28,574 nucleotides of DNA from a virus (taxonomy: Duplodnaviria > Caudoviricetes), in the IMG/VR virus record IMGVR_UViG_3300034356_003525, positions 1 to 28,574 of that record; one strand, 5' to 3'. Shown piece by piece: positions 1-25,894 of the stretch (position 1 is the stretch's first letter; each line of letters opens with the position of its first letter). The notes beneath the pieces are model-generated. The model had not been told where the DNA came from, ran no database searches, and worked only from the letters and a program-made list of their open reading frames with translations. The translations under genes and the position numbers were made by a program.

Positions 1-1654
1 CAATTGAGTCTGGACGGTCAAAAGGGTTTTGTTGACCAGGTATCATTGCGAACACAAGCGTCCCAGATGTTATTTCGTCGTCTGGGTCAGAAATTCCATC
101 CTGTTCAAGCATCTGTTTGTTTGAGCCCCAGTAAATTTTTAGAGGTATAAATGGAACATCTTCAAATTCTGCGTTGGGATTATGGTTATGTATTGCAATT
201 TTTTCAAGAATTTTTTCTACCAATTCTTCCATTTCCCTAAATTTTGTATTACTTAGTGGCTCTTCAAGCTGTTCTTCTAGCGCTTCTTTTCTTGCTTTTT
301 TTAGTTCGGAGTCAGAAAGCCCACCACGCAGCAGTCTCTGCACAACACTTGGACTGTATCCAAGCAAATCTTGTTCAAACTGATTAAGGAGTCTGAATCC
401 TCCAGCCCCATCTGGGACGGCCTGTTGCTCAAGAACACCGTTAATCATTACTGGGGATGCTTTTTCAAAATAATTTGCATCTAATCTGATTTCTGGTTTG
501 CCATCTTTTTTACGTCTTGCATTTACTCTGTCTTCAAGGTCCAAATTTGACCGATATAAAATTTCTAACGCTTTTTGAATTCCGGTTCCGGGCCATGATT
601 TTACGATATTCCTAATATAAGATTCTGGTTTTACAACTTTTTCTTTTTTGCGCGCCTGTCTTTCTTTACCTTCATTACGGGGTAATATTCTTGTTGTATT
701 GCTAACAATTGGCAGAAACATCCTTCCAACTGGAGAATCATCTGGTGAATCTATTCCTGATGCAATAAGAGAACCGTTATCGTCATATAAGCTAAGAGTA
801 CGTTTGTCGTACCTTAGTGGTCTGATGTTGCTTGCCATTGAGCTAATAGCTTCTGACAACTTTCTAACTTTTGGAACATTTGGAATTTTGTCGTTGTTTA
901 TCTTTGCGGTAGCAGAACCGACTGAGCCATCTGGGCCATCTGGGGAACCCGGTATGTCGCAACCTATTCCAAAAATATTCGTAAATCTATTTGCTCCGGG
1001 ATTTCCTGGACCACACCTTAATTTGTTTTTTCCGTCAAGGTAAAGCCCTCTTGCGTTTGCAGCAATACTCAAAAGAGATTGGCTAAAATCGTTGAGCGAA
1101 CGTCCAAGTAGTCCTTTTTCGGATTCATTTTTTACTGGGCGCGGATACTGCAATCTAAATTTGTCGGTTGGTAGCGGTAGATATTTGATTATGTCGTCTA
1201 ATTCCGTAAACCTCATATCATCAATTGGGTCCCCGCCACCGTAGTTGTGGCACATCTTCATGGATAGACCAGGCGGCATCATCGGCAAGTCATCGCCTGG
1301 TTTCCACTTCTTTGCCCACTTGAAGAATTCAGACTCTGGATATTCGGGAGTTTCTTTTTTGGGTTTTGATGCTTTGAAATTTATTTGCTCGTTGGGCTGT
1401 TTCCACCAGTCGTCAAGGCTTTTACCCCTATAAGAGGTAATTGCATTTGTTGCCCACTCTGAGTTATGTCCACCAAATTCGGTAATAGAAACAGATTTTA
1501 ATTGAATTTCGTCGGATGCTTCAGCTTTTCTAAAAATATCAGTAGTCGAGTTATAGACAAAACGGTCTCCACCTGGTGTTTGGTACATGAATGAGTTGCC
1601 ATTCTTTGCAACAATTCTTGCATTTAGTGGAATGTTCTGGCTTTTATCGCCCAT
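1..1654 (-). CDS. Large hypothetical head-operon protein, truncated by the window edge (at least 551 codons)
   Basis: Not in the ORF track. Hand translation from ATG at 1654 (MGDKSQNIPLNARIVAKNG...) stays open to position 1. Contains LRCGPGNPGANRFTNIFGIGC and one SPVGRM motif (719-736). TATAAT on the minus strand at 1702-1707. Confidence 0.9.
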   Translation of the reverse strand, partial: MGDKSQNIPLNARIVAKNGNSFMYQTPGGDRFVYNSTTDIFRKAEASDEIQLKSVSITEFGGHNSEWATNAITSYRGKSLDDWWKQPNEQINFKASKPKKETPEYPESEFFKWAKKWKPGDDLPMMPPGLSMKMCHNYGGGDPIDDMRFTELDDIIKYLPLPTDKFRLQYPRPVKNESEKGLLGRSLNDFSQSLLSIAANARGLYLDGKNKLRCGPGNPGANRFTNIFGIGCDIPGSPDGPDGSVGSATAKINNDKIPNVPKVRKLSEAISSMASNIRPLRYDKRTLSLYDDNGSLIASGIDSPDDSPVGRMFLPIVSNTTRILPRNEGKERQARKKEKVVKPESYIRNIVKSWPGTGIQKALEILYRSNLDLEDRVNARRKKDGKPEIRLDANYFEKASPVMINGVLEQQAVPDGAGGFRLLNQFEQDLLGYSPSVVQRLLRGGLSDSELKKARKEALEEQLEEPLSNTKFREMEELVEKILEKIAIHNHNPNAEFEDVPFIPLKIYWGSNKQMLEQDGISDPDDEITSGTLVFAMIPGQQNPFDRPDSI

Positions 1655-1725
1655 GGTGGGTCTTTCTTTAATCTTTGCGATTGCGGGTTATTTGTATGTA
1701 AATTATAGACTTATTATCATAATTA

Positions 1726-4329
1726 TTACGAAGGAGACTTTTCGTAGCCGTCAATAATTGAACCGATTCTTGATGTTAGTTTTTCTCCTGTTGTTGACCA
1801 GCTGTAGGTTTTGTCGTTTTTGAAATCTGTATACACATACCCAAATGGGTTTGAGCGAACACTTGGGTCGTCAATGTTTTTGTCAACCTCGAGCGTTTTC
1901 ATTACAAGGTCGTACCCAGCAGCACGTATTTTTTTCCTTGTTTTTTCTGAACTTTCAGCAATGTTCTCTGATAGGAGTTTTAGCATTTTTATAGCATTTT
2001 CTCTGCTTAATGATTTTTTGTTTGATAAATACCCATTATTTATTAATCCCAAATCGTTTGCCATGAAGGCAAACCCAAACCAGTCTCTCATCTCGGTATC
2101 GGTCATTGGGCCTTCTGGAATACCGTCTGAGCCATCACTCAGAACACCAGATTCAAGAAGTGAGTTAACTCTGTGGACTGGGTTTGAAAGTGACCCTTTT
2201 CCTCCAGAAATTTGCTCCCACAATGGAACTCCTGTGGTTTCCGATGAATACCCATAAGCCGTATTCGGTGATGGCTCGGTAGACATTGAACCAACCGGGC
2301 CAGATTGAGGCAATGGAGCAACACCAGTTTTTGATTTTGAGCCACTGAAGGAAACTTGCCTTTCTTCTAGCAGCTTAAAGAAATTTTTTGAGTCTTTATA
2401 GTTCGGGGCGACTGGCGCATTGTCCGAATCTGTACCCAACCTATTAGTCATTTGCTCAGCAACCGACTCTCGTTCGTCTTGCGAGATTGACCAAAGTAGC
2501 GGTGGATTTTTGCCTATTTCAATCTTCCAGCCATCCATGGTTGATGTTATTTTTATGCCGTTATTTTTTTCAATTTGAGCAGTTGAATCCCGAAAGTAGC
2601 TGTCAAAATTTCCATAATTTATTGCTTCTTCGTCTACGCCATTTTTGCCCATGAAGTAGATGCCGGCCCTTCGTATATCAAATGCTCTATATTGCTCTCT
2701 TGCTGGGTTTTTACTCTCACCCTGCAAGAGCGAAAAGATGTATTCTGCTGGCATTTTGCCCAATAGCCCGTAACCGGTTTTTTCTAATAGTTCATTTTTT
2801 TTAAAGTTTTCACCAATTTGATTTTCAATTAATGGCTGTATGTCGTTTGCCATCAACCAAAAATCAAACCAGTCAACTGTTTCCCCTTCTGCAAAGTTAC
2901 TTAGCTCAAACACATCTCCACCCTGGTTGTCTGGCAAAGAATATTTATCTATTTTGTTTCCTTGTGGTTTTGATGAAATCCATGAATGAAGTGGATTTGC
3001 GGAAATCAAAGTTTTAAATTTTTTTCTTTGTTTTACAACACCGTTCTCGGTTTGGGTATTTACGAGTTGGCTCAAAGACGACATATTCCCTATCGGTCCA
3101 TTTTTTTCTTGTATTTCGTACTTGGGTTGCTTTGTGTTGTTCATGTCTCCTGGGTTATCCCAGTAGTCATTGTGGTTAAACCTAACCCCTCCGTCTGCCA
3201 ATGATTGTTGCAGAAGAAGTAGCGATTCAAACTCTTTCTTCAGCCCAAGAATCTGGGCGGAACGTGTCATTTTCCATATCCTAGTTGGGTAGGCAAGCCA
3301 TGGGTCTTGTCCTGCATCCCAATTCATATCGTCAACATATGTTGACGTTTCGACATCCCACCCAAAAGCAAGTGCGTTTATTTTTATTGCTTCTGCAACA
3401 TTTTTTAAAAATTTTCTGTTTCTTTTTAGCCTCTTTAATGGCTTGCCTGCAATATTGTATTTTTCCCCATAGGCAATACTTCCTCTGTCAATTGGAAACA
3501 ACCACCAGTCGTAGTGGTCGTTATGTATTTTATTCCATCGAGAGGAGTCTGCTAACTGTCTATGTTTTGCGAGCTCAAGGGCTTGATGCGTTACTATGAA
3601 TCTGTCACCGCCATAAGGCGTTGTGTTTATATATCTTGCCCTTGGAATTGTGCTTTTTGGCAACATTGAAGATGGACTTCTGTATCCGGAAAGAACATCG
3701 GACTGCGGCTCAAATTCCCCATAGCTATCCATTGTTTCGTAAAAGTTTGGTGGGGGAAATTCGTAGGACTCCTCAAAGTCTGGGTCTAGCCCAGCGTCTG
3801 CAAGGTATGCACGCCAAGCGTCGTTGTAGTCAATTTCAAGTTCTTCGTCTTCTAGTTCCGTCAGGCTGCCATCAGCTTCGGATAGCCAAATTTTTTTATC
3901 AAATTCTTCTTCGTCTTCTTCCTCTTCCATCAATCTTTCGTCAAATTCAAGTTCCATTTTGTTGTAATCAATTTGTGTAAAAAGAGATGGATTGGATGGC
4001 TCGTCTATCTCAAACTCGGAATCGGAAACCGGTTCGTCTTTTGAAACTGCGCGATTAACAAAATCTCGAGCTTTTCTTCTTTTTGACCTGTTATTTTCAA
4101 CCCGCCCAACAGGGCCGCCGGGCGTTGGGTCAATTACTCCACGTCCACGATTAACGAAAGGAACACCCTCAAGTACATATGGGTCGTTATCTGCGTTTCT
4201 TGCGGTTCTTGGGTCAAGATTTCTACCAGAAGAACCTATGGGCATGCCAATAGCTTTAACACCTAAGTTGGCGTTAGTTTTTCTATTTGTTCTGTTGCCA
4301 GGTTTTCTAACTTCAGTTGGTTCGGCCAT
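1726..4329 (-). CDS. 867-aa modular protein: NADND tag, acidic linker, OGFr-N/DUF1810-like domain, two diverged repeat units
   Basis: Long ORF in the head operon. HYDWWLFP (3493-3516) and later TRIWKMTRSAQILG resemble the H..QWLFP / RITRILKSL..LG pattern of the OGFr N-terminal family. GPIGNM and GPVGSM motifs precede the two repeat units. Confidence 0.85.
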   Translation of the reverse strand: MAEPTEVRKPGNRTNRKTNANLGVKAIGMPIGSSGRNLDPRTARNADNDPYVLEGVPFVNRGRGVIDPTPGGPVGRVENNRSKRRKARDFVNRAVSKDEPVSDSEFEIDEPSNPSLFTQIDYNKMELEFDERLMEEEEDEEEFDKKIWLSEADGSLTELEDEELEIDYNDAWRAYLADAGLDPDFEESYEFPPPNFYETMDSYGEFEPQSDVLSGYRSPSSMLPKSTIPRARYINTTPYGGDRFIVTHQALELAKHRQLADSSRWNKIHNDHYDWWLFPIDRGSIAYGEKYNIAGKPLKRLKRNRKFLKNVAEAIKINALAFGWDVETSTYVDDMNWDAGQDPWLAYPTRIWKMTRSAQILGLKKEFESLLLLQQSLADGGVRFNHNDYWDNPGDMNNTKQPKYEIQEKNGPIGNMSSLSQLVNTQTENGVVKQRKKFKTLISANPLHSWISSKPQGNKIDKYSLPDNQGGDVFELSNFAEGETVDWFDFWLMANDIQPLIENQIGENFKKNELLEKTGYGLLGKMPAEYIFSLLQGESKNPAREQYRAFDIRRAGIYFMGKNGVDEEAINYGNFDSYFRDSTAQIEKNNGIKITSTMDGWKIEIGKNPPLLWSISQDERESVAEQMTNRLGTDSDNAPVAPNYKDSKNFFKLLEERQVSFSGSKSKTGVAPLPQSGPVGSMSTEPSPNTAYGYSSETTGVPLWEQISGGKGSLSNPVHRVNSLLESGVLSDGSDGIPEGPMTDTEMRDWFGFAFMANDLGLINNGYLSNKKSLSRENAIKMLKLLSENIAESSEKTRKKIRAAGYDLVMKTLEVDKNIDDPSVRSNPFGYVYTDFKNDKTYSWSTTGEKLTSRIGSIIDGYEKSPS

Positions 4330-4343
4330 GCCGTACCGCCGAA

Positions 4344-5906
4344 CTAGTTGAGCTCTGTTTGAGGCTTTGATTCGTCTTGGCTGTTGGAAAAACCTTCTTC
4401 AGCCGCAATCATTTCAAACTCAAGGAGCGTTGAAAGGAAATTATCTGCTGCAGACTTTTCTCCAGTTTCAAATCTCTTTTTTGTTTCTTCGTCAACCCAG
4501 CCATCCGGAATGATGTTTTCAAGACCCAGCGCCATTGCTCTTTTCATGATGTGCATCTTTGCAACATCACTCTTTGAGCGCTCCCATGCCATTATTGCAT
4601 TTCTTAGGTCCATCTCATTGGCGATTGGGAATTTGCCATCTTCCATTGCTTCTCCAGATTCGGACATTTCTTTTTTCTGGATGTCGCTATAGGAGCGCTT
4701 GAGTGCAATTTCTGCAGCTTCTGCCTCAATTGCAAGTGCTTCATCTTGGGTGTATTCGTCATACCCGAGAACGTCGCCATCAAGTGAAACAAAAACATCG
4801 TAAGACTTGCCGTCTATACCTTCAATCTCTACTGCGTATGCATCAAAGCCTTCAAAAATGTCTGCCTCAACAGCAACAACATCACCCTGAATACTCTTTG
4901 TCGCAATTCCAGCAGCTTCGCTGAAGGATATTAGGTTTGTTGGCTGGAAACCAGATTTTACCTGAAGAACTTCCTCGTTCAGCATGTGCCATCCCATTAC
5001 CTCACCAGTTGAGCCATCAAAGAATATCTCAATTGGCTTTCCGTCTTTTCTTTCGACATCAACCACAAACATGTCCGCTGCATCAGAATACCCAGAATCA
5101 AGTACCTTACCGCTGAACATATCTTCTGCTCTTCCTTCAATTTCCAGGAGAGCCGGCATGTCGCCTTCCTTTACACAACCGCCTGGGCAGTTGTCACAAA
5201 GACCAGATGCACCCGGATAGACCTTGCGCTCAATTGCGCAGACGAATACATCAGAGCCAAAGTCTTCGGACTTGTAGCCCATGCTTCTTAGTCTTCTGTC
5301 TTCCATCATTTGACGATTTGGAATTTCATCCTCCATATCGTCTTCTTCCATCTCTTCTTCCATTACTGGAGCCATCTGTCTTTTTCTTTTTGGAGCAGAA
5401 CTCATGGCGAGCATCTCGTCCATGTCGTCTTCCATATCGTCTTCGTCTTCGTACTCTTCTTCGTCTTCGTCTTCATCCATCATGGGGGCGGTCATACCCA
5501 TGCCTTTTTTCTTCTTTGACATTGCGTTCATCATCTTGATGTCGTCTTCGTCCATGGCCATGTCCATGTCCATGTCCTCTTCGTCCTCTTCTTCGTCGTC
5601 ATCATCTTCTTGAACATCGTGGTCTTCGTCTTGATAGACATCACCATAAGCCCTCATGGCGGCTTTCTCTTCTGTCATTTCCATCATCGGCTTCTTTTTC
5701 TTTTTTGGCATTGGGACAGGCATGTCTTCATCCATTTCAACAGATGCGTCGTCATACATTTTCATAGAAACAGCCATAGCTCCGCACTTCCCACAAACTT
5801 TGTCTCCTGTTTTGTACCCACACTCAGAAGAATCAAGACCTTTTGCGCACTGAACAATTTCTCCGTCAGCATCAATTTTCAACATAGGACCGTCAGTCAT
5901 TGCCAT
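4344..5906 (-). CDS. 520-aa probable head-internal protein: Cys clusters, Met/Asp/Glu-rich region, two PepSY-like domains, DUF6582-like domain
   Basis: AAGGAG upstream of the ATG. ISFSEAAGIA...GDVVAVE...AYAVEIEGIDGKSYDVFVSLDGDVL is a typical PepSY pattern, with a second copy upstream. AMEDGKFPIANEMDLRNAI...HIMKRAMALG matches the DUF6582-type pattern. Confidence 0.85.
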   Translation of the reverse strand: MAMTDGPMLKIDADGEIVQCAKGLDSSECGYKTGDKVCGKCGAMAVSMKMYDDASVEMDEDMPVPMPKKKKKPMMEMTEEKAAMRAYGDVYQDEDHDVQEDDDDEEEDEEDMDMDMAMDEDDIKMMNAMSKKKKGMGMTAPMMDEDEDEEEYEDEDDMEDDMDEMLAMSSAPKRKRQMAPVMEEEMEEDDMEDEIPNRQMMEDRRLRSMGYKSEDFGSDVFVCAIERKVYPGASGLCDNCPGGCVKEGDMPALLEIEGRAEDMFSGKVLDSGYSDAADMFVVDVERKDGKPIEIFFDGSTGEVMGWHMLNEEVLQVKSGFQPTNLISFSEAAGIATKSIQGDVVAVEADIFEGFDAYAVEIEGIDGKSYDVFVSLDGDVLGYDEYTQDEALAIEAEAAEIALKRSYSDIQKKEMSESGEAMEDGKFPIANEMDLRNAIMAWERSKSDVAKMHIMKRAMALGLENIIPDGWVDEETKKRFETGEKSAADNFLSTLLEFEMIAAEEGFSNSQDESKPQTELN

Positions 5907-5907
5907 T

Positions 5908-6099
5908 TTATTGCTCCTTGTATTGCATGGTCGTCGAAAGACAACCCTTTGGGTTCATGCATCCACCGCATGGAAACTGACGCTTTTCGCCAGCAACAAT
6001 GCACCGATACTTTGCCTTAGAACTGTTTTCTTTAGTACGTTTAGCATAACCCATAACAGGGTTCTTGCGGTTGTACCTACTTTTTCTTTCTGTATTCAT
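5908..6099 (-). CDS. 63-aa Cys-cluster protein
   Basis: Fills the gap between flanking same-strand genes almost exactly. YRC-x10-CGGCMNPKGC resembles the FVC...CDNCPGGC cluster of the next gene. Confidence 0.7.
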   Translation of the reverse strand: MNTERKSRYNRKNPVMGYAKRTKENSSKAKYRCIVAGEKRQFPCGGCMNPKGCLSTTMQYKEQ

Positions 6100-6103
6100 A
6101 AAA

Positions 6104-6604
6104 CTATTTACTTCTGTTTTTCCATTTTTCGGGAATCATGTCTTGCCGCCCCAAAGATACGGCCCTCTTGATTATGTGTTTTTTTGCTCTGGCTTTATTT
6201 TTTGCTCGACCAAAAGCATAAATTGCATTTTCCAAATCCGATTCATTCTCAATTGGATAAGAGCCATCGGGAAGAGCCATTCCGCTTCTTGCTAGTTTGT
6301 CTCGTGATTCTTCACTGAATAGTCTTTTCTTGTTCAACCCAGAGAGCTCCGATAATCTCTTTACAAGCTCATCAATTAGTAATGGACCCATTGACTTTGC
6401 GTCAACAAGTACTACCCCTTTTTCATTTGCCAAGGACTCAAATCCATATCTTTTTAGAACTTGGTCAACTTCGGTTTTTAGGTAGAATATTTCAGAGAGT
6501 TCGGTTTCAATAGTAATTTCTTCTGCAAGCGTCTCGTCAATAGATTCAAGACTTTTTATTGAAGTTTGGTATATGTTCGATTGAGCCGAAGTATATATTT
6601 TCAT
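6104..6604 (-). CDS. 166-aa protein with C-terminal DUF6582-like domain
   Basis: ALPDGSYPIENESDLENAIYAFGRAKNKARAKKHIIKRAVSLG is clearly paralogous to the C-terminal domain of 4344-5906. Confidence 0.85.
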   Translation of the reverse strand: MKIYTSAQSNIYQTSIKSLESIDETLAEEITIETELSEIFYLKTEVDQVLKRYGFESLANEKGVVLVDAKSMGPLLIDELVKRLSELSGLNKKRLFSEESRDKLARSGMALPDGSYPIENESDLENAIYAFGRAKNKARAKKHIIKRAVSLGRQDMIPEKWKNRSK

Positions 6605-6610
6605 CTTAAA

Positions 6611-9600
6611 CTAATCCCTGTCTCGCGGAACGGTGATTCCGGGTATGTTGTATCTTGGAAAATTAGAAGAGTTGAGCATTGTCTGGTCTTCAAGGGATGC
6701 ACCGCTTCTCAATCTGTCCATTTCGTCAAATTGCAGAACACCATCAACATCTCTCTTTTCCAACATTTGTTTTCTGAGTTGCAAGTAGAACCATTTTCTG
6801 CGTTTTTGAAGTTTTGGAAGATATGACACAAGCTTTCTGACTTCGGCTTTTTTCTTATCCCGTTCATTTCCGGCGTGAGTTCTCATTTTTGCCAGATACT
6901 CAAGTCTTCCAATAATTGTGTCTAGGGCTGAGTCTGCGGCTGTCCATCCAGAGAAAAGCACATATTCGGTTGCATCTTCAGCGCCACCGTAAGGAAGCAT
7001 TGCGTCGCCATCCTCGTACGCATTTATGGCTGCTTCGGCATTACCCTTGGTTACTCGTGCGCCATTTCTTCTAACTGGGTCATTTGATGAGTACCTACTC
7101 CCAGGAATTTTTCTCATCCCGCCAGCTGGGCCATCGGAAAACGGAAGTTCTGGTTGTTCGTTTTCGTAGATGCCAGATTCAATAACTGGATTTTGTTCTG
7201 GCTCTTGTCTTTGTGGTGGGTTTTGTGAAGAAATCCGTGCTGGAGAAAATGGATTAAATGTTGTGTCGTTTCTGTCCATCCTCTTGGCGCCGTCAAGTGC
7301 CTCCAACCTGCTATCAAAAGAACGGCTTACCGGAGCGTTTCTGTTAGCCGTGTCTATTATGACCCATTTACCGTCTTCGGTTGGCTTGATGTCATAACGC
7401 TGCGGAACAAAACGTCTGCCCATTGAGCCAGCGGGACCACTCCCACCTTCTTCTGGGTTGTATGTAGGACTATTAAATAATTTGTTTAGTTCCTCAATCT
7501 CACGTGCTGTATCTATATCGGCGTCTGGCTCTGTTGTATTTTCCCCATCATAGAAATAGCCAGCGTATGGACCGCCAAGGTCTTCTATCTGCTCGATTGG
7601 GCGGTCGTTTCCATTCTCATCATAAAGTGTGTTCTTATTTCTTTCAGTTGCACTCTGGAACCAATCGTCAAATCCGTCCCCAAGTTCTTTTCTTTTTCTG
7701 GAAAGAAGTCTTTCAAATGTCTTGCGTCTGTCATTGACAATCATTCTCTCGGCTCGCTCAAATGGGGTCATTAGAGACGCCATTCGTGCTTCAGCTATTT
7801 CTCTGCCTTTTTGAGCGTAATCAACAACCTGATTTGCTGATATGTCCAAATCTCCAGCAACCGAAAGAATGTCATATGGCATTCCTTCAATATCACCGAA
7901 GTCTTCACCACTTATTTGCGAGTCAAATATTCTCTGATTTAGGTAATGATGAATATCAATGAGGTCGTCGTCTGTTGGATTATCCCAGTCTCTTTGTTCA
8001 ATTGTAGAGAATCTTTTTCCAATTTGTTCAGCAACAATCTTCCATTTGTCATCACCATAAACTTCGTACAGCCTTCTATCAACATGCTTACTGCCACTGA
8101 TGGGTACATTTGGCATTGAACCTGAGGACATTGAACCAACCGGTCCCTGCGGTGGGTTTTGCTGTATTTCTCTGATTGCAGATTTTGCATCCTCGGAATC
8201 AAAGTATCTTTTTTGAATTTCTCTACCGACAGATTTTAGTTCTTTCATTAATGCCGATTTGGCAGCCCTATCTTTGCGGTGCGGTCTTCCGTAGGAGCCG
8301 AAGAGTTTTTCCATTGCATCGTTCCATGCGTCAACCAGTTCGTCATCGGACATTTCTGATGCATTCTTACCGGACATGGCTCCAACAGGACCAGAATCGT
8401 CATAAGAAAAATTCATCTCCCTGTATGCATAGTCAATATTTTTAACTAATTCTCTTTGACTCATTTCGTCATCAAGGCGCATTTCAAGTTCGTTGTAATC
8501 AATTTCACCAGATTCTAATTGACTCGTAATTTCATCAATAGAATCAAATGAGCGTATTTCGTTGGCTCTTTCCCTGTCTACAACATTCAATCTTCTTCTT
8601 ATGTTTTGTTGACTTGTTGAATGTCTTTGTGCAAGCTGTGATATTGCCTGTCCTTCTGGAACAGAGGAGATAAGTTCTGTTAACTCATTATAAATCTGTA
8701 TGTTGTACAAATTGTCAATGTTTCTTTCTTCTGTGTTTCTTGGTCTTACATATCTGCCCATTTTCCCAAAAGGAGAGGAATTCATTTCTGGGTCAAAAGG
8801 AATGTTTCCAGAAATCTCGTATTCATTGTTTTTTAGTCTTGTAATAGAGGCGCCAAATTCGTCAATGTATGGACCGTTTGCAGTTTTGTTTATTCTCTCA
8901 AGTGCGGCGTACCTGTCAAGAACATCGTCCAGTTGTGAATCGTTCCTGTTGCTCGAGTTGGTTATTCTAGAAAGCAATCTCTTCGATTCAGCCATTCTTT
9001 GCGATTCTGGCATTGATGAGTATGTTGAATCATGCTTATTTGGTCTCCAGAAATCTGTTGGAGAATAGTTTGGAACACGTGAAGCATTCAATCCAAGCGC
9101 ACCAAATGGCCCAGTATCAAAACTATTTATTTGATTTTTTCTGCTCGCTCTAGCAAGTTTTTCTTTTGCCCTGTTGTAAGCTGCAATGTCCGAGGCGCTA
9201 GCAATCGCAAAGCCTCTCCTATCTGCACCTATCTTGCGGCTTAGGTCTTCTAGTAAGTATGGCAATGATGTAGGTATCGGCTCAGATGTTGACCTTACGG
9301 CAATCATGTATGGGTCAAATATTTTTCTTTGACCGTCCGATTTATCTGTTGCATGTAGAGATACATCCCCATTTGTGTTTTTGACAAACTTAACAAGTTC
9401 TACTGCATAGACCTTGTTCCCATATGGAAACTCTGCATCAATAACGTCCCTGTCAGCAGTAGCAAGCGTGCTCGCAATGGTTCCCTGGTTGTCGTCAAGC
9501 GAAATGAGTAGCGTTCTTTCCCTAGCACCTCGTCTCAGGGAAATCGTTTTAGCAACTACATCGGCAGTTGTTCTTTGCCTTTCAGTCTGTCTTTCCCTTG

Positions 9601-12600
9601 GTTTTTCTTGCTCTTCTCGTGGTTGTGTTCTTTCCCTCTGGCCCGATTCCTCTTCTCTTGGTTTCCTTTCGCCAGCACCTTCGTCCCTTGGTCTTCTGGT
9701 GGAATTATCACGAGGTCTAGATGCTCCAGGAGATTCCCTACCTGGTCTTCTTGTCTCGGTCCGCTCGCCTGTCTCAGCTTCAGGTTTTGGCTTTTCGGAC
9801 TTTCTTCCATACATTCTGTCGGTTCTGAAATTCTTTTCTTTCCCATCTTTTTCATCTATTCCAACAATGTAGGCACTGATAACTTTGCCGTCCCCCCCAA
9901 AGCGCTCTTCGTATCGTGGCTCGGTGACTGTCCTTTTCTCTGGTCTATCTGCATCCGGCTTTAAGTATTCAAAAGAAATCTTAAGACCGGAATCCCTTGC
10001 ATCGGTAATCGCTTTCTTAATATCCGATTCAGTAAAGTCTTTTGCCAGAATTATTTCTGAGTCTGTCTCTATAACTGGTGTTGATGAATTTAAGCCAAGA
10101 CCGTAAAGTCCAAGTTTTTCATACTCTTCTTTAAGTTCTTGTGCGGTTACATTCTCTCCAGCTTTTCCTCTTATGTCAGCCTCGACATCCCATGGTTTTG
10201 CCGAAATCATAACTCCGTCTGTTGCCGGATGCCTGCCTCTTTGGGTTCTAATTTTTTCAACTGTTTCATCAAAAATTTCACCAAGTTCTTCTTGTGGCCA
10301 GTCGCTATAGGAAAACAGGTCACCAGAAACTGGGTGATTCCATTTGATTAAATTGCCATTTTCGTCTTCGGCAACCAAAAACACAGGACCGGTAGAATTT
10401 ACGCCAACATTCTTGTGTCTGTATTTTGTTACCTCACCAGTCAGTTTGTTTACATATGTAGATGAAATTTTTCCATCGTCCCCAATTTCCGATTTGTCAA
10501 TATTTGTCCCTCTGCCGCCAACTGTTTGTGCAGCTTGACTTGGTGATGATTGACCAGCCTGCCTGGAAGCTCTACTTTCAGCCATTCTTTGTCTAGTAAG
10601 GGTGCGCATTCTGTCCCATTGCTCTGGCATCAACCCGCCGTCAATGTCGTATCTGTACAGTAATTTTTCAATATCTGCGTCGTCTTGTTCAAGCGTTCTT
10701 GCTGCGTTGACCAATCTTTTTCCGTCTTCTGGGTCTGCGCCAAGCAGCTCGCCGGTCTCTCTGTTTACTCTGAGTACAGCTTCTTCTCCTGGGGCAAGAG
10801 TGTAACCTCCGTCATTGTTTTCAAACTTGTCAATCAATGATGCGGCATACGACCATTGCCTATCCGAAAGTTTTCCATTTTTTGCATACTGGAAGTACAT
10901 GTCGCCGAGTACTGAATAATTTTTTTCTGCACCGGTCAAGTCTTTTTTGTCTTTTGAGTCAGCGGCTTCTCTTAGGGCAGCAGACTGCTCGCTATTTCTT
11001 AGCGTATGAATTTTTTCTATGACAGCCGGTCCAAAGTCTGGGGTATCTACATCTTTTGTAACAATCAAATCTGGGGAGGTACCCTGGTATCTCCACTTCC
11101 ATGAGTTTTGTGTCCAGAATTTTTCTTCGGGCCCACTCTCAAGCCTTCTAACTTTTTTATTTCTAATAAGTCTTCTTGCTTCTCTTTCTTCTTCATCCCA
11201 GCTTTCAGACATATCGGCTGTTGCAAAAATTTCTCCGCTTATTTTGAAGTGTGAAGGCTCTCCGTCATATCCGCTCTTATTGTTCCATGAAACAATTCGT
11301 GAACCTTCTCGTGGCGATGTAGAGCTATCTATGGAGCGCAAAGTTTCTGTTCCGTCTGGATTCAAGAACAAACCCTGTGGTTTCATTTCATCATCAAGGA
11401 ACACTCCACGTTCTGCGGCTCGAGCCATAGCTTGTGCTTCATCATTTGTGACAAATGAGTACTCTGGGGTTTCAACCACCATGTAGTTGGTCTCCCCATC
11501 TTCTGCCAAAAGCTTTCTTCCTAGAATTTCATGGAGTTCTGGTTGATTGAATCCGCGCACTCTACGGAGGTATGGCTTTTCCTGCATTGACACACCATCA
11601 GACAGGTCATCAGTGAGGTCGTATTCCTCTACTTGGCCATCGTCACCGTTTGCGTAAATACGTGTTTTATTGTTTTGTCTTATTGCCATTGAACCAACTG
11701 GACCATCAGAGAAATAATCGTCTATCTCGTTGTCAAGCTGTGTTTTCCCAACATACTTTTTGTACAGGCTCCCGTCGCTGGCATCGGCTTCAAGAAAGAA
11801 TCCTTCATCGTCAATTCCGTACCTCGTGTTTGATACAGAAACGGGTTTTGAAGTTGAGCCATCTGCTTTTCTAAGAGTTCTCATAGACTTTGTTAATCTT
11901 GAATCAACATCTTCAATTTTTAAATTAAAGTCTTTGGCAATGTCCAGATTTGTTGCACCGTAGAGTTTTTGGGAGAGCACATCCCTGTCTGTTCCTTCGA
12001 GCAGGTATCCGTGTTCTCTCATCAAGTAACGAATCTCGGAGCGTTCTGGGGTCTCTGTAGCCGAAAGAATTGTTGCTTGTGCTTTTACAATTTGAACGAC
12101 ATCATTTCTTGAAATATCGTTGTCTTTTGCTATTTGCTCAATTGGCGAATTCCCAAAACTTGAGTAAACATTTCTCATTAGCTTTTCAGGGTATGAACTC
12201 TCTTCATTATTGTTATTACTAATGATTCTGTCAATTGCTCTTATTGCACCTGACGGACCGTCTGGAGAATTATTACCAGAATAAGGCTCTCCAGTTATTG
12301 AGAAGTTACTCAAGAAACTGTTTATTATGTTTGGAAGATACTCATCAAGCTCTGGGTCGTCGGGGTTGTTTTGTTTTAGGTAACTCTTCTTGCGACCAGT
12401 TAGGTCAAAAACTTCAGATGTAAAACCATCTGGCAACGGTTTTTTAACTGAATCAGTGTCTAGTGTCTCACTAAACCCAATACTCCTAGGACTGCTATCT
12501 CTTCCTTTTAAATCGTCGACAGACTCGGCTGCCCCTATTGACTCCGTCCATTTTGCATTGGTCATTGAGCCAACCGGCCCATTGTCAATTACCATGGAGT

Positions 12601-15400
12601 CTTGCAACTTTCTCATTGCAATTTGTTCTTGCCGTCTTACGGTCTGTCTATCTGTTCCAAGTCTCTCTGCTGCTTCTTGAAGGGTCTCTCCGTCAAGCCT
12701 TCTTTTCATCAAACTTGTCTGTGCGTCAGTAAGCGTCGACGAAGGGTCGTCAAGCATTCTTCTTGTCACTCGATTGGGACTGTTTTCATCCATGCCACGA
12801 AGTTTTGACATGTGCCTTAGCTCAAGCTGTCTTGCCTTTTCCCTTGTTATAGAGAATTGTGAAGCTGCTTCGTTAAGAGAAATTCCATCGTTATCTCTTG
12901 CTAGGAATATTTGTCTTCCAAGCTTTTCTTCACGCATTTGTCTTTTTTCTCTTGCTGAGAAGTTTGAGCTGCTTGGTAAAGCAGACATTGCCCCACGTGG
13001 TGAGTCAACATCAACAACTCCAGCCTCTTCTGGTCTTTTCACATATGGGAGGTCTCTGTTGCTTCTTTTTCCAATTTCGTTTACATATCTTTCTACTGTT
13101 CGTGGAGAGATATTAAATTTGCGCGCAACCTGTTCGTATGCTTTTTTTGTATCTTTGTTTTTTGAAACAGCGTTGAATGCATTGAATACCTTTTCGGCGG
13201 TATCCATGTCAATTGGTCGCTGTTCTTGCGAGAATCTTCTTCCGGTCGACATGCGACCAGCTGGTCCACCAGAGACCCTCTGGGGCACTCTTTCTGGGAC
13301 CTCAACTGGAAGTGGGGTTCTTTCTGGCTGTCTCCGTGGTACGCGCTCAGGAACTCTTTCAGGCTCTCTCTGGGGGACGCGTTCTGGAACTTTTTCAGGT
13401 TCTTTTTCAGGAACTGTTTCTGGAACTTTTTCAGGTTCTTTTTCAGGAACGATAACTGGTCTCGCTGGTTTTACGTCTGGTTTGACTGGCTGTACTTCTG
13501 GAATCTCTTCTGGAATTGTGACTGGTTCCGGGACAGAAGGCATATCTGCTTCTCCCGGTCTTCTAGTACGTTTTGGCTTTTTGGGAACATTAAAATCGCT
13601 TCCAGGGGTTGGGTCGATAACGCCACGTCCCCTGTTTATTGTTGTAATTCCCTCAAGAACATATGGGTCGTTGTCTGCGTTTCTTGCAGTAAAGGCATTT
13701 GTGTTTCTTGGCTTTTTGCCGATTGCAGCACCAAGAGCTTTTTGTTCAAAAGAATCAAAAAAATTTGATAGAGCCTTGTATGCCGCAACGCTGACTTTGT
13801 CAATATTCGGAACAACAATTCCGTTTTCCAAAACTTTTACATCAAATGAGTGGTACTCAGCAATTGTATTAATTATTTCAAAAGCTTCAATTTTTTCTGC
13901 ATTGTTTTCCGGCAACAAGAAAAGATGCTCTCCGATATTTGCAGATTTAAACTCATCAAGAGTGCTCAAGTTGTTTGGTATAGAGCAAGATGTGTCGCCT
14001 TTTGAACAATCGTCACAACATGCTTCATGTGGCACTGCAGCCGAAGACATTGCATCGTAGAGGCTTCCGTTTGTTTGCCCCATTGATACAATCATTGCGT
14101 TTGGGGTTCCGTTATCACCCATTCGACTACCGTTTGAGTTGTTCGTAGGTATATAAACGGTTTCTGGTCTTACTTGTTGCGCCGTTCCAAACATGAATTC
14201 GTCGCCATCAAAATAATAAGAAACTCTTAATGTCTCAACTGAGACGCCGGCTCCCATTTCAAAAATTGCAATGTCGTTGTCTGCGTTAACCAGTCTTACG
14301 GCTCCGCCAAAATGAGACGCCAATGCCCTTGTAAGGTCGGCGGCGCGTCCAACAACAGAGTTCTCTCCATTGTTCATTGCTTCATATATAGCAGTTACAT
14401 GGTTTTTTGTTTCCGAATCATTGCTATCATCTTTTTTCTTTGTGTTGCTATAGCGCTCAAGTAGTCTTCTTCCCTTGGCTGCAAGTTCTGCGGCATCCGC
14501 AGCATTCTTTGGAACTGGTTCGCCCCACGCAGAAGCAGAAAGGGCTAGTCGTGTTGGTTCTCCGTTTGGTTTCTTCATTGGACCAGAGGGATTTGTAAAA
14601 AATCTTGTCAGAAAAGAACCTTTGCGACGCATCTTTTCCGGTGTGTCTGCTGGACCCTTAACTCCTGGTTTAAGATTTGCGCCTTCGGTCCTCTTGAAAT
14701 GAGCACGACCAGCTGCGGTCAAACCACCATTTGGGTCGCGTAACTTTGCTCCTTTTTCTTCGATTGGAACACAGTTGGGAACCATATTCCCATTCTTTCC
14801 CTTTTTCATTCCTTCTTGTCTGTATCCATCCCAACAAGGTCCACCCTTAACCTCGCCACCCTGTTCATCAGACTTAATAGAAATTGTCCCCGTCAACTGG
14901 TTTGCACCATGAAGTACTGGGGAAACTTCATACAGCTCAACCTCTTTTAGAAGATTTGCTTGCTGTGTTGGGTCAAAGACTGCATCAAGGGTTTTATAAC
15001 CAATTGACCATTCCTGCTCAAGCCCAAAGAACGAAACATTTGCAAATGCCTCTCGTCCTCTTTCGGCTTTAAGGTTGAATTGAACTCTCGTATAAAGACC
15101 ACCGACCCCAGCTTTTCTCATCTTTGCTGGAAGACGTGGGTCGTTTGGACCAACTTCATAGATTTCCAAAACTTTACCAATTGGCTCATTCCAATTGTGG
15201 CCCCATACAACTCGAGGTTTTCTTCTCTTCAAAGAGTTTGTGAAACAACCAGGAAGGCAAATATCGCCAACAGAGTCTTTATTACCAACGCCAGCAGCAA
15301 AACACTCGACTATACCGAGAGCTTCGTCAATATTGAATTGCCCTGTTAGGGACTTATATTCGTAGTCGGCTGATGTTTCTTGCATGTTTGTCATAGTCAC
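6611..15400 (-). CDS. 2929-aa giant protein: N-terminal HK97-type prohead protease fused to a long array of modules (HTH/sigma70 region-4-like, WYL, unknown)
   Basis: Uninterrupted ORF directly downstream of the portal. N-terminus shows protease motifs (see domain feature). Exact start uncertain (GTG 15400, or one of two ATGs a few codons downstream). Confidence 0.93.
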   Translation of the reverse strand: MTMTNMQETSADYEYKSLTGQFNIDEALGIVECFAAGVGNKDSVGDICLPGCFTNSLKRRKPRVVWGHNWNEPIGKVLEIYEVGPNDPRLPAKMRKAGVGGLYTRVQFNLKAERGREAFANVSFFGLEQEWSIGYKTLDAVFDPTQQANLLKEVELYEVSPVLHGANQLTGTISIKSDEQGGEVKGGPCWDGYRQEGMKKGKNGNMVPNCVPIEEKGAKLRDPNGGLTAAGRAHFKRTEGANLKPGVKGPADTPEKMRRKGSFLTRFFTNPSGPMKKPNGEPTRLALSASAWGEPVPKNAADAAELAAKGRRLLERYSNTKKKDDSNDSETKNHVTAIYEAMNNGENSVVGRAADLTRALASHFGGAVRLVNADNDIAIFEMGAGVSVETLRVSYYFDGDEFMFGTAQQVRPETVYIPTNNSNGSRMGDNGTPNAMIVSMGQTNGSLYDAMSSAAVPHEACCDDCSKGDTSCSIPNNLSTLDEFKSANIGEHLFLLPENNAEKIEAFEIINTIAEYHSFDVKVLENGIVVPNIDKVSVAAYKALSNFFDSFEQKALGAAIGKKPRNTNAFTARNADNDPYVLEGITTINRGRGVIDPTPGSDFNVPKKPKRTRRPGEADMPSVPEPVTIPEEIPEVQPVKPDVKPARPVIVPEKEPEKVPETVPEKEPEKVPERVPQREPERVPERVPRRQPERTPLPVEVPERVPQRVSGGPAGRMSTGRRFSQEQRPIDMDTAEKVFNAFNAVSKNKDTKKAYEQVARKFNISPRTVERYVNEIGKRSNRDLPYVKRPEEAGVVDVDSPRGAMSALPSSSNFSAREKRQMREEKLGRQIFLARDNDGISLNEAASQFSITREKARQLELRHMSKLRGMDENSPNRVTRRMLDDPSSTLTDAQTSLMKRRLDGETLQEAAERLGTDRQTVRRQEQIAMRKLQDSMVIDNGPVGSMTNAKWTESIGAAESVDDLKGRDSSPRSIGFSETLDTDSVKKPLPDGFTSEVFDLTGRKKSYLKQNNPDDPELDEYLPNIINSFLSNFSITGEPYSGNNSPDGPSGAIRAIDRIISNNNNEESSYPEKLMRNVYSSFGNSPIEQIAKDNDISRNDVVQIVKAQATILSATETPERSEIRYLMREHGYLLEGTDRDVLSQKLYGATNLDIAKDFNLKIEDVDSRLTKSMRTLRKADGSTSKPVSVSNTRYGIDDEGFFLEADASDGSLYKKYVGKTQLDNEIDDYFSDGPVGSMAIRQNNKTRIYANGDDGQVEEYDLTDDLSDGVSMQEKPYLRRVRGFNQPELHEILGRKLLAEDGETNYMVVETPEYSFVTNDEAQAMARAAERGVFLDDEMKPQGLFLNPDGTETLRSIDSSTSPREGSRIVSWNNKSGYDGEPSHFKISGEIFATADMSESWDEEEREARRLIRNKKVRRLESGPEEKFWTQNSWKWRYQGTSPDLIVTKDVDTPDFGPAVIEKIHTLRNSEQSAALREAADSKDKKDLTGAEKNYSVLGDMYFQYAKNGKLSDRQWSYAASLIDKFENNDGGYTLAPGEEAVLRVNRETGELLGADPEDGKRLVNAARTLEQDDADIEKLLYRYDIDGGLMPEQWDRMRTLTRQRMAESRASRQAGQSSPSQAAQTVGGRGTNIDKSEIGDDGKISSTYVNKLTGEVTKYRHKNVGVNSTGPVFLVAEDENGNLIKWNHPVSGDLFSYSDWPQEELGEIFDETVEKIRTQRGRHPATDGVMISAKPWDVEADIRGKAGENVTAQELKEEYEKLGLYGLGLNSSTPVIETDSEIILAKDFTESDIKKAITDARDSGLKISFEYLKPDADRPEKRTVTEPRYEERFGGDGKVISAYIVGIDEKDGKEKNFRTDRMYGRKSEKPKPEAETGERTETRRPGRESPGASRPRDNSTRRPRDEGAGERKPREEESGQRERTQPREEQEKPRERQTERQRTTADVVAKTISLRRGARERTLLISLDDNQGTIASTLATADRDVIDAEFPYGNKVYAVELVKFVKNTNGDVSLHATDKSDGQRKIFDPYMIAVRSTSEPIPTSLPYLLEDLSRKIGADRRGFAIASASDIAAYNRAKEKLARASRKNQINSFDTGPFGALGLNASRVPNYSPTDFWRPNKHDSTYSSMPESQRMAESKRLLSRITNSSNRNDSQLDDVLDRYAALERINKTANGPYIDEFGASITRLKNNEYEISGNIPFDPEMNSSPFGKMGRYVRPRNTEERNIDNLYNIQIYNELTELISSVPEGQAISQLAQRHSTSQQNIRRRLNVVDRERANEIRSFDSIDEITSQLESGEIDYNELEMRLDDEMSQRELVKNIDYAYREMNFSYDDSGPVGAMSGKNASEMSDDELVDAWNDAMEKLFGSYGRPHRKDRAAKSALMKELKSVGREIQKRYFDSEDAKSAIREIQQNPPQGPVGSMSSGSMPNVPISGSKHVDRRLYEVYGDDKWKIVAEQIGKRFSTIEQRDWDNPTDDDLIDIHHYLNQRIFDSQISGEDFGDIEGMPYDILSVAGDLDISANQVVDYAQKGREIAEARMASLMTPFERAERMIVNDRRKTFERLLSRKRKELGDGFDDWFQSATERNKNTLYDENGNDRPIEQIEDLGGPYAGYFYDGENTTEPDADIDTAREIEELNKLFNSPTYNPEEGGSGPAGSMGRRFVPQRYDIKPTEDGKWVIIDTANRNAPVSRSFDSRLEALDGAKRMDRNDTTFNPFSPARISSQNPPQRQEPEQNPVIESGIYENEQPELPFSDGPAGGMRKIPGSRYSSNDPVRRNGARVTKGNAEAAINAYEDGDAMLPYGGAEDATEYVLFSGWTAADSALDTIIGRLEYLAKMRTHAGNERDKKKAEVRKLVSYLPKLQKRRKWFYLQLRKQMLEKRDVDGVLQFDEMDRLRSGASLEDQTMLNSSNFPRYNIPGITVPRDRD
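9810..10025 (-). other. WYL domain within the giant protein
   Basis: IKKAI...KISFEYLKPDADRPEKRTVTEP...AYIVGIDEKDGKEKNFRTDRM follows the WYL consensus F.Y....R.v.P....Yl.g.d......FRlDRi. Confidence 0.8.
13280..13530 (-). repeat. Coding tetrapeptide repeat (PEKV/PEKE/PERV) linker with a 36-bp tandem duplication
   Basis: TTCTGGAACTTTTTCAGGTTCTTTTTCAGGAAC occurs at 13382-13414 and 13418-13450; protein reads VPEKEPEKVPETVPEKEPEKVPERVPQREPERVPERVP. Confidence 0.9.
14870..15352 (-). other. Prohead protease domain (HK97 gp4 / peptidase S78-like)
   Basis: NKDSVGDICLPGCF, VVWGHNWNEPIG (His), EWSIGY (Ser), LKEVELYEVSPVLHGAN (Glu): canonical order of S78 motifs. Confidence 0.93.
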
Positions 15401-15452
15401 CTAGTCATCAATGATAAACGAGTTGCTCCCGTTTTTGTGAAGCTTTTTATTT

Positions 15453-15484
15453 TATTTATATAAAGTTGGTTGTGTTTATATAAA
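15453..15484. promoter_or_regulatory. Tandem TTTATATAAA palindromes upstream of the giant protease gene
   Basis: Perfect 10-bp palindrome at 15455-15464 and 15475-15484 in the 84-bp portal-protease gap. Confidence 0.4.
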
Positions 15485-17734
15485 TCAATCTTTATCAAAT
15501 CTCAATCTACATCTGCAGTTTATTGTTAGATGAGGTGGGGCGAATGGGTCTCCTGGAAACCTCAACAATGTCCCACCCATATCAAACGCTTCTAGTACGC
15601 CAACCGACTTACCATGTAGGCCGGCGTGTTCTGGTCTAACTTTTGGGTCTTTTTCCGTAATCCATGTTTTTGTCATTGCTCCTATTGAGCGTCCGGACAA
15701 ATAAGTTCCTGCGTTGTACGCAGTTTGCCCCTCGTGCTCAGCTATGAGTCTTTTCCTCTTCATTAATAGATTTATAAAAATAGCTAAAAGGGCAGCTTTT
15801 AACATTCCGACTTTATCTTCTTCGTCGGACATTGACGAAGCAACAAGAACGGCTGCTGCAACCTCAGATGCTGTGGTGGAATTTACATTTTCCATCCGCT
15901 CCATCTGTGAATCAAGATGTTCTTTTACTGCATCCTCATCCATCTCTGCCTGCATTGATGCTTCTTGCGACACAACACTTGAGGCGTCATTCATTATTCC
16001 GCTAAGTATTGGTCTTATGTCTTCGTTCATCTGTTTATTCCATACGGCTACGTCAAATATCGATTCTGGGTCAAGTGACTTCGATTCAATATTTTTTCTA
16101 GCTTTACTCCCAGCAGCTTTTTCCATAATTACTCTCTGCTGTCTTTCAAAAAATCTTTCAAGTGATGCGTCAAGTATCTCAATCCACCTGTCCGATGATT
16201 CTTCTGCTTTGAAATCCCATTCATCAGATATGTAAGAACCCGCTCCACCGCCCTCTTCTTTTGTCTGTGGCCCACCCATAGCTGTTGCTTGTTGAGCAGC
16301 AATTGCCTCTGCTGTCAAGGCTGATGTCATTCCCTCAGACGGACCGCCCTGTGGGGCTGCTTGAGGACCATATGCCGGAATTGGTATTTCTTGAGGAGCT
16401 GCTGGTGCCCCGGGGGTTGGTGGCATTCCGGGTACTGGTGGCATCCCGGGAACTGGTGCACCGCCTCCCATCATGTCAAGTTGTCCCTGCTGCGCTGGTT
16501 CAAACTTTTTATTTGTGTATCCGATTGGCGTCAAGTTTGGATTAGCAAGCATTGCATCCATTAGCTCGGAGTCAATTTTTCCGCGCCCAGCACCTTCTCT
16601 ATATTCGTTTCCACTTATCAAACCACTTTGGTATTCATTGAGAAGGTATCTGTCTCGTTCCTGCTTATAGAGAACTAGAACTGGAACATCAGTTACATCA
16701 AAGTCAATGTAATATTCTGGGTGAAGTTCGTCCAACCCACGAGCCAGTGTTTCTAGGTGCGGGAGCATTGTTTCATTCCAAAAAACTTTATGTTCTTCTG
16801 AGGCGTTGCTAAATGTTCTTCCGGAAGCATTACCAATAACAGATTCGGGAACTCCAAAAGCTGCGAGTATTTCTTCTTTTTGTATCTGACGCATTTGCAC
16901 ATAGTTTGCATCTCGGGGTGATTGACCCGTATCTACAAAATCAACACCTTCGTCAGAAGAGACAACAGTTACTGCGCCGGCCCTATTTATGTTTCCTCTA
17001 AAACGACTTCTCAATTCATCTTTGTCGTCATCATTAATTTCTCCCCTAACAACAAGAAGGCCACCTGGTCGACCATCATTAAGTAAGAAATTTCTGTTGT
17101 ATATTTTTGACAAGTTCTCAATCTCTATTGCGATACCGGCAGCTTCCATTGGGGTTAATGAAAGGTATGGGTCCAGTGGGTGTGGTTTTCTAATCCACAC
17201 AACATCTTCTGGTTTGAGAATTACTTTTGTGCCATTGCGCATATCAACTTCAAAACCTGAAACAAATCTTTTCGGACAAGGTATTGGAGCAGTGTGTTGC
17301 GGTGGCAAAAGTTGCAGCGCAATTAGCTGACCATCTCTGCCTCTTACTTTTTCAATGAATGCCCCACGGGACGACATAAGCAATTGAGATGAGAGCCTGT
17401 ATCTAAAAACAAATGAGTTCTCACCCATGTTTGATTTGGTGTTTAGTAAGTTGAGGATGCTCTCATCTGACTCTCGAATAATTTTTCCATTTGGACTATT
17501 GTTCTCCCGCAAAATAGCTGGCAATCTTGATTGATTTCCTGCAATTGCATCTATGCACCTATTAACCCAAGTTACCTTTTGGAAACCTTCACGGTACGCT
17601 CTTTCAATATCCCACGAGTCCCTGTAGGGCTTACCAACCATTGAAGGGTTGAACGCAACCGGCGCTCCTGGTCCAAGTGCGGACTTTTGTTGCGACTGGT
17701 CAACTGACTTATTTTGCGATGGGTTCCAAGGCAT
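15485..17734 (-). CDS. Portal protein (HK97 family) fused through a Pro/Gly-rich linker to a MuF (SPP1 gp7-like) domain
   Basis: Portal motifs WVNRCIDAIA, SLTPMEAA, NFLLNDGRPGGLL, EILAAFGVPESVIG; C-terminal KTWITEKDPKVRPEH...FPGDP...INCRC is the MuF signature. Confidence 0.93.
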   Translation of the reverse strand: MPWNPSQNKSVDQSQQKSALGPGAPVAFNPSMVGKPYRDSWDIERAYREGFQKVTWVNRCIDAIAGNQSRLPAILRENNSPNGKIIRESDESILNLLNTKSNMGENSFVFRYRLSSQLLMSSRGAFIEKVRGRDGQLIALQLLPPQHTAPIPCPKRFVSGFEVDMRNGTKVILKPEDVVWIRKPHPLDPYLSLTPMEAAGIAIEIENLSKIYNRNFLLNDGRPGGLLVVRGEINDDDKDELRSRFRGNINRAGAVTVVSSDEGVDFVDTGQSPRDANYVQMRQIQKEEILAAFGVPESVIGNASGRTFSNASEEHKVFWNETMLPHLETLARGLDELHPEYYIDFDVTDVPVLVLYKQERDRYLLNEYQSGLISGNEYREGAGRGKIDSELMDAMLANPNLTPIGYTNKKFEPAQQGQLDMMGGGAPVPGMPPVPGMPPTPGAPAAPQEIPIPAYGPQAAPQGGPSEGMTSALTAEAIAAQQATAMGGPQTKEEGGGAGSYISDEWDFKAEESSDRWIEILDASLERFFERQQRVIMEKAAGSKARKNIESKSLDPESIFDVAVWNKQMNEDIRPILSGIMNDASSVVSQEASMQAEMDEDAVKEHLDSQMERMENVNSTTASEVAAAVLVASSMSDEEDKVGMLKAALLAIFINLLMKRKRLIAEHEGQTAYNAGTYLSGRSIGAMTKTWITEKDPKVRPEHAGLHGKSVGVLEAFDMGGTLLRFPGDPFAPPHLTINCRCRLRFDKD

Positions 17735-17743
17735 TATGTACTT

Positions 17744-17965: not shown

Positions 17966-18005
17966 AGTAATCTAAACTTAGCACGACTAATCGACTTGGA
18001 CGACA

Positions 18006-19310: not shown

Positions 19311-19343
19311 TACAGATTACACCCCTATTAAAAAAGAGGAAAA

Positions 19344-21315: not shown

Positions 21316-21324
21316 GGAGATTAA

Positions 21325-25885: not shown

Positions 25886-25894
25886 GGTTTAGAG

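Follow-up and report, generated by a model that had tools for sequence, protein, structure and literature searches.

The giant head-operon proteins of an uncultured tailed phage are divided by a short recurring motif, [GS]-P-x-G-x-M, and comparison with relatives indicates that this motif is a real, family-wide junction code of phage head polyproteins that is selected as protein. We consider it probable that the motif is a cut site of some kind. It forms the joints of swappable modules and, more tentatively, may be cut by a zincin encoded in the edge ORF, with the fused capsid protease cutting at separate lysine sites.

A recurring motif in the head operon

The DNA analysed here, a stretch of 28,574 nucleotides (the window), is a phage fragment with a terminase, a portal fused to a MuF domain as first head-operon gene (15485-17734; window coordinates are on the minus strand unless marked otherwise) and, after it, an S78 prohead protease with a fused extension of about 2,750 residues. 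The resulting 2929-aa protein (6611-15400) comprises the HK97-type prohead protease, a lysine-punctuated N-terminal part (residues 1-554) that includes a DUF6321 domain (residues 221-292; 14525-14740), and about 11 motif-delimited modules. It is followed by a 520-aa acidic protein (4344-5906), by an 867-aa protein made up of a leader module, an OGFr_N-like module and two further modules (1726-4329), and by an edge ORF (2-1654) that holds the first 551 residues of a protein of about 1750 aa, whose two HExxH...E zincin domains lie beyond the window edge. The 520-aa protein has Lys sites, no Met motif, and weak PepSY-like repeats (best at 4788-4931), its PepSY match in Pfam being below the cut-off at E 5e-4; it is a conserved head-cluster protein that carries Cys motifs and occurs in zincin-less lineages too. 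Elsewhere in the window, a trio of ParB-like, PAPS-reductase-like and ParB-like genes on the plus strand (23943-26452) is possibly a DNA-modification cluster. An independent contig, possibly of the same population, is 99.96% identical to the window over positions 8227-21341 (13,115 bases), so the reading frame over that span is no assembly artefact. Small shares, belonging to related strains, are present in four lake metatranscriptomes; these matches are to contigs only, give no cover for window bins beyond 18764, and are no evidence of expression or habitat.

The preliminary description had reported 12 strict copies of the motif and three variants, and all of them are present, in frame. Nine strict copies punctuate the 2929-aa protein: GPAGRM (Met717; 13250-13267), SPRGAM (Met805; 12986-13003), GPVGSM (Met946; 12563-12580), GPVGSM (Met1238; 11687-11704), SPFGKM (Met2214; 8759-8776), GPVGAM (Met2342; 8375-8392), GPVGSM (Met2424; 8129-8146), GPAGSM (Met2660; 7421-7438) and GPAGGM (Met2762; 7115-7132). 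The same protein holds the variants GPSGAI (12242-12259) and GPFGAL (9095-9112), which read GPSGAV and GPVGSL in the closest complete record, G001. The 867-aa protein has GPIGNM (Met416; 3082-3099), GPVGSM (Met682; 2284-2301) and the variant GPVGRV (4099-4116; GPVGQM in G001), and the edge ORF has SPVGRM (Met312; 719-736), upstream of the first zincin domain. An extra loose copy, GPDGSV at 920-937, was missing from the earlier listing. Another loose match, SPNGKI (17480-17497), lies within the portal domain and is retained in G001, probably by chance.

Chance accounts poorly for these numbers. For the 2929-aa protein 0.035 strict copies are expected, and none of 2000 shuffles reached nine (maximum one); local shuffling over 30 or 60 residues raises the expectation only to 0.065 or 0.05. 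The 867-aa protein has two copies against 0.019 expected (two were reached in 0/2000 shuffles), and the edge ORF one against 0.010, a count matched in 20/2000 shuffles. Among gapped three-residue patterns in the giant, P.G.M ranks second, behind a repeat of the Pro/Glu-rich linker. As the earlier reading had it, the motif is missing from non-head genes: the strict form is absent from the remaining 21 of the 24 window ORFs, among them three further products of this operon, the 520-aa and 166-aa proteins and the portal. The residue after the motif Met is S, T, A or G in 10 of the 12 strict copies, again as reported, the other two being R and F.

The cargo between the motifs is only partly recognisable. 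Right after K554, the giant continues with a 47-aa leader module (13601-13741), a second copy of which, 70% identical, opens the 867-aa protein (4117-4257); the module recurs in other giants. It has a DxDxD-like segment and directly follows a Lys site in several giants, and it is possible that it serves as an address tag for capsid targeting or ejection. A long repeat linker rich in Pro, Glu, Arg and Val (13253-13560) stands ahead of the giant's first Met motif. Next come two motif-bounded HTH modules (12566-13252), of residues 717-804 and 805-945, the latter with tandem sigma-70 region 4-like HTH. Together with the OGFr_N-like module (3085-3690), which is a weak assignment by language-model neighbours only and had no Pfam match, these HTH/sigma-70 region 4-like modules are the sole identifiable cargo in the window. 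A search for a free-standing homologue of the OGFr-like module returned only the module itself, and a search with the 840-aa C-terminal part of the giant gave only 8 relatives. One stretch of 864 aa is free of motifs, and a few motifs are spaced just 7-14 aa apart. In relatives, the domains between motifs include NUDIX, zeta-toxin-type kinase, Clp_N, DnaJ, ADP-ribosyltransferase (ART) and exonuclease. Thus, of the earlier proposal that the motif releases effectors, the modules between motifs stand; an effector role for them does not follow from a window that identifies only HTH/sigma-like modules and a weak OGFr_N-like one.

Junction placement and respelling among relatives

Conservation of the motif is at the protein level, as had been suggested from its synonymous codon variation. 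Three close pairs (80-83% identical) offer 24 orthologous sites for comparison: Pro and Gly are each retained in 24/24 and the first residue in 22/24, and the last residue is always M, V, I or L, even as synonymous differences occur at 42 of 72 codons.

The motifs were also said to lie between domains and not inside them. This is borne out in 10 proteins, where 0 of 71 motif sites fall within Pfam stretches (8.1 expected), often at about 6-16 aa from a domain start. Across 31 non-redundant giants with 203 motifs, 55 of 325 homology starts lie within 10 aa of a motif (18.6 expected), as do 63 of 364 ends (21.2 expected), with starts skewed downstream of the motif and ends upstream; shared motif letters can pull alignment ends in this comparison. 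With the motif removed from the query, [GAS]xM[SAGRTK] occurs within 20 aa at 40 of 49 homologous module starts (9.4 expected), some targets being near-duplicates of one lineage. Modules are gained and lost cleanly at motifs: a motif-bounded module of 280 aa is present in G001 at a place where only a decayed junction remains in the window (12470-12493), and the related protein P0002 is without the window's module 717-804. The suggestion that the motif is a cleavage site is kept as the best reading of its junction placement and conservation, the cleavage being predicted from sequence.

Relatives were collected with the first 300 residues of the 2929-aa protein as query; 600 related stretches were confirmed and 80 loci were listed. 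The genes of the head giants sit between portal and capsid gene, and in G001 (174 kb) this interval holds twelve head-cluster ORFs totalling 14,724 aa, among them proteins of 3190, 1748 and 5345 aa. Those head residues contain 21 strict copies (0.18 expected), and the 37,021 residues of the 141 other G001 ORFs contain none. The 5345-aa protein (L101:3220-19254, minus strand) precedes the capsid gene and ends in Clp_N, NUDIX and zeta-toxin-type modules, each motif-bounded. G002 has its own motif form: 18 copies lie in the head cluster, and of the 2 outside it one is in the tape measure (7419-12512, minus strand); the G001 tape measure has a loose match only. In G011, the gene following the capsid gene (L206:1-912) holds one copy of its lineage motif.

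The exact spelling is not shared by the whole family. [GS]PxGxM is clade-specific, punctuating the protease fusion in 4 of the 80 listed loci with 3 stray single matches elsewhere, and other lineages have ISGRM, VSGKM, ITGKM, VTGAM, LSGSM, PTASM, AGM, TGxM, GMRS or GLAS. What is common to the whole family is the core small-x-Met/Leu-small, and not the strict motif. In a motif-free clade, 7 loci with at least 2,700 head residues have zero copies; by eye, the head-cluster proteins of this clade (L122-L123 of G010 and L106-L107 of G004) contain long linkers rich in Arg and Pro, and each ends in a single kinase-like domain. Junctions before homologous modules match the spelling of their own genome in 163 of 182 directed pairs, a figure obtained with hand-made per-genome patterns and thus partly circular. 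Since the DNA is not homogenised, we infer that a single trans-acting reader best accounts for such concerted respelling.

Lysine sites, the candidate zincin and alternative readings

The S78 domain itself is readily recognised (residues 30-173; 14882-15313; Pfam E 5e-11), with 43.4 bits for PF04586 against a cut-off of 21 and 54 bits for TIGR01543, slightly under the cut-off of 59. His68 (15197-15199) and Ser132 (15005-15007), which by analogy with HK97 gp4 we take to be the catalytic pair, are invariant in 27/27 sequences. A model of the domain has T4 gp21 and herpes proteases as its top matches, the resemblance to T4 gp21 being weak (E 0.018, prob 0.97), and thus shows an assemblin/gp21 fold with conserved His and Ser on that weak match; a PDB sequence search with the S78 protease gave no match. 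Lys-type sites flank the domain, EYK/SL before it (K16; 15353-15361; invariant in 27/27) and SIK/SD after it (K176; 14873-14881; at least 90% conserved). Further sites lie at 14846-14854 and 14753-14761, and EQK/AL (K554; 13739-13747) opens the cargo part. In the window giant all pattern-matched Lys sites lie at or before residue 554 and all Met motifs lie from 717 on. The general Lys-site pattern is only 2.8-fold denser before the first Met motif in relatives (17 in 8,026 aa versus 23 in 30,333 aa), so the Lys code rests on its conserved sites. The window has no capsid gene, but extrapolation from HK97, whose mature capsid chain retains 282 of 385 aa, leads to K139/D140 of the G001 capsid protein. 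At this maturation site, 39 of the 39 distinct sequences from the 80 listed loci have Lys.

The preliminary description named the fused S78 domain or another phage or host enzyme as the possible protease. Since the capsid and flanking lysines are conserved and the S78 core does not vary between clades with and without the motif, S78 is probably a Lys-specific protease, with G-x-M as a separate signal and two codes coexisting. It is thus probably not the main reader of the motif, and we propose a phage zincin for that role.

The best candidate reader, tentatively, is the zincin of the edge ORF. Protein P0023 is 100% identical to residues 125-551 of the edge ORF and then continues with two HExxH...E domains, each with the zincin signature and downstream Glu that the 2929-aa protein itself is without. 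A model of a relative's zincin domain (pLDDT 83.5) is nearest to a lethal-factor-type fold (VIA, Z 9.0, rmsd 3.5, 165 aligned), then to Pro-Pro endopeptidase zincins at about 5, and the rows after the best match are also zincins; neither Foldseek nor Pfam matched the domain, and Atlas gave only weak M90/ATLF neighbours. Among 34 distinct edge-ORF homologues, HExxH is present in 23, 4 are cut short, and the 7 that are complete without it all belong to the motif-free clade. This joint loss of zincin and motif is essentially one clade event. Invariant zincin residues were identified in sequences that had been picked by those same patterns. A zincin is nevertheless present in motif-free G004/L043, and one is encoded in the head cluster of a cultured Gordonia phage that makes no polyproteins; the zincin can therefore have another job. 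Covariation with the motif singled out neither zincin nor S78 as reader in the 18 of 21 lineages compared (L009, L022 and G011 lacked markers or had too few sites and were left out): the partial correlation is 0.03 for the zincin (p 0.41), 0.24 for S78 (p 0.03) and 0.24 for the PepSY protein, for which some sequences are of unequal span. Such zincins prefer a hydrophobic P1' residue.

The steps we propose would run as follows. The head giants would be packed into the prohead, where the HK97-type protease would trim their N-terminal parts at xxK/[SAGD] and bare the shared leader module. The zincin would then cut before Met, tolerating Val, Ile or Leu, in the head or post-ejection, and release units mostly of 80-300 aa. 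With somewhat less assurance still, we picture lake myophages with a two-protease system, in which Lys trimming would load 10,000-15,000 cargo residues and a dedicated zincin, possibly checked by the PepSY protein, would cut 20-30 junctions with a specificity that is tuned anew by each lineage throughout its head cluster. A PepSY domain is thought to inhibit M4 peptidases (PMC9988556).

Several other readings were weighed against cutting by the zincin. The motif may stay uncut and be bound instead, as a repeated tag that serves capsid loading, a chaperone or tail threading during ejection, an idea we regard as doubtful and yet as the strongest of these alternatives. The results on junctions, conservation and respelling would suit any trans-acting reader, P-I-G also occurs in the leader just after the Lys site of several giants, one motif copy lies in the G002 tape measure, and the virion RNA polymerase of N4 has a zincin domain and is nonetheless packaged uncut (PMC5512222). 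However, strict placement at module starts exceeds what a tag needs, and whole chains of 3,000-5,300 aa would be hard to eject.

It is unlikely, if a little less so than for the remaining readings, that one enzyme, the fused S78 protease, serves both kinds of site, cutting behind Lys and, with Met as a Lys look-alike, also behind the Met of G-x-M/[SAG]. T4 and SPN3US, each with one protease and one motif, offer a precedent (PMC10052503). S78 stands at the head of the chain, small residues follow both site types, and the partial correlation given above favours it; the PepSY protein, however, correlates equally well. Also in its favour is a second, upstream capsid site: of 48 distinct sequences, 33 have Lys there and 4 have Met, and three of these 4 come from Pro-type lineages, G001 among them. 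That upstream site is loosely constrained, though, with 10 different residues seen, and the true capsid site is Lys without exception. In addition, the S78 core stays the same where spellings differ or vanish, and the motif Met is swapped at orthologous sites for Val, Ile or Leu, which are poor Lys mimics.

Cutting by a host protease after ejection, with spellings that follow host change, appears improbable. Motif distance does track every phylogenetic marker (rho 0.66-0.78), Clp_N and DnaJ domains are among the cargo of relatives, and Clp-type proteases prefer Met/Leu. The host is likely actinobacterial, because among cultured phages those of Gordonia and Brevibacterium have the nearest proteases (37-42%). 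Nonetheless, a phage zincin is at hand, and host proteases are too conserved for so many spellings and mostly processive.

Two further readings are very improbable. If the Met codons were translation starts, either internal or left over from genes that have fused, the residue following Met, which resembles natural second residues, would be accounted for, as would a Clp_N module that begins about where ClpC proteins presumably do; yet there is no excess of Shine-Dalgarno sequences at motifs (15/203 versus 99/1795) and none of leaderless -10 boxes (1/203 versus 30/1795), GTG or TTG occurs in 0 of 11 Val/Leu/Ile variants, and the Pro and Gly upstream of Met are conserved as amino acids. A DNA-level recombination cassette driving module shuffling would suit the clustering of homology breakpoints at motifs and the slightly raised share of identical codons in 3 of 7 genomes, but the same-codon fraction is near codon usage (0.37 versus 0.35 in G001, 0.29 versus 0.27 in G002) and motif serines are both TCN and AGY; the motif may still aid shuffling as a side effect. 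Two other candidates were rejected, a slippery A-run at the protease/cargo junction (runs of 4-8, with Lys codons AAG 51 and AAA 37 in 40 junctions) having found no support, and 2A-like skipping having been set aside because Pro is not retained across lineages. An adenain-like enzyme was a further candidate.

Comparison with known systems

The S78 protease, the HK97-fold capsid and the Lys at the equivalent position of the relatives are shared with HK97 gp4/gp5, in which the capsid maturation site is presumably Lys103. Maturation of this kind would account for the Lys sites only and not for G-x-M. The Gordonia myophages (ChisanaKitsune, GMA6 and kin) likewise have a portal-MuF fusion, xxK/[AGS] sites, head-cluster cargo and a zincin-bearing gene; their cargo, however, is in separate short genes, and neither polyprotein nor G-x-M punctuation was seen by eye in 11 proteins. 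In ChisanaKitsune, gp23 (L216:5356-8265), a gene labelled HNH endonuclease, has an unannotated HExxH...E domain, and the head proteins have xxK/[AGS] sites throughout, which makes this phage a tractable test system.

Protease-led chains with a recurring junction signal are known from RNA-virus polyproteins and from African swine fever virus pp220. As in such processed polyproteins, a recurring signal here stands at domain junctions; the differences are that this is a tailed DNA phage, that cleavage is predicted, and that the modules are cargo and not core replication proteins. If the proposal is true, a DNA phage would be using polyproteins with a second protease.

T4 and SPN3US/phiKZ (gp245/gp175) resemble the present system in having a short motif common to several head proteins (PMC10052503), and the gp21-type protease of T4 has the same fold as S78 by the weak model match. 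These phages are described there as cutting after A-x-E, mostly to remove N-terminal propeptides (PMC10052503), whereas here the proteins would be divided internally and a separate Lys code is present; the junction motif is without Glu, and the x-x-Glu signal of T4 and SPN3US does not apply to it or to an S78 protease with Lys sites.

The closest parallel is with the polyvalent proteins of phages and conjugative elements, for which HExxH...E zincin domains have been proposed as processing enzymes (PMC5512222). As described there, polyvalent proteins have many unrelated domains per chain, are encoded among virion genes, are mosaic and have HExxH...E zincins; the giants studied here also have at least two unrelated domains per chain in mosaic arrangement among relatives. 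Pfam scans with general profiles found ART and NUDIX domains in relatives and no ArdC match. In contrast to our giants, in which the assemblin-like peptidase is N-terminal, it is C-terminal in polyvalent proteins, and the available part of that paper's text has no junction motif and 0 occurrences of 'linker' (PMC5512222); here, a recurring signal is common to several genes and respelled per lineage. Head-fused effectors and processing zincins are mentioned, with no junction motif in the portions covered, in three other papers (PMC7824862, PMC9503650, PMC3482391). A literature search that included the motif letters found no description of it, within a scope that leaves out most subscription papers, and the supplements of PMC5512222 could list such proteins.

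The processing of polyvalent proteins has so far been proposed without defined sites. Here, the sequence itself gives 20-30 sites per genome, so that a reporter and two small purified enzymes would be enough to test the idea. If the reading is right, the motif would mark domain boundaries for many head-cargo modules that are still uncharacterised and are candidates for anti-defence or host takeover, and the proteases of the different lineages would form a natural series in which specificity shifts.
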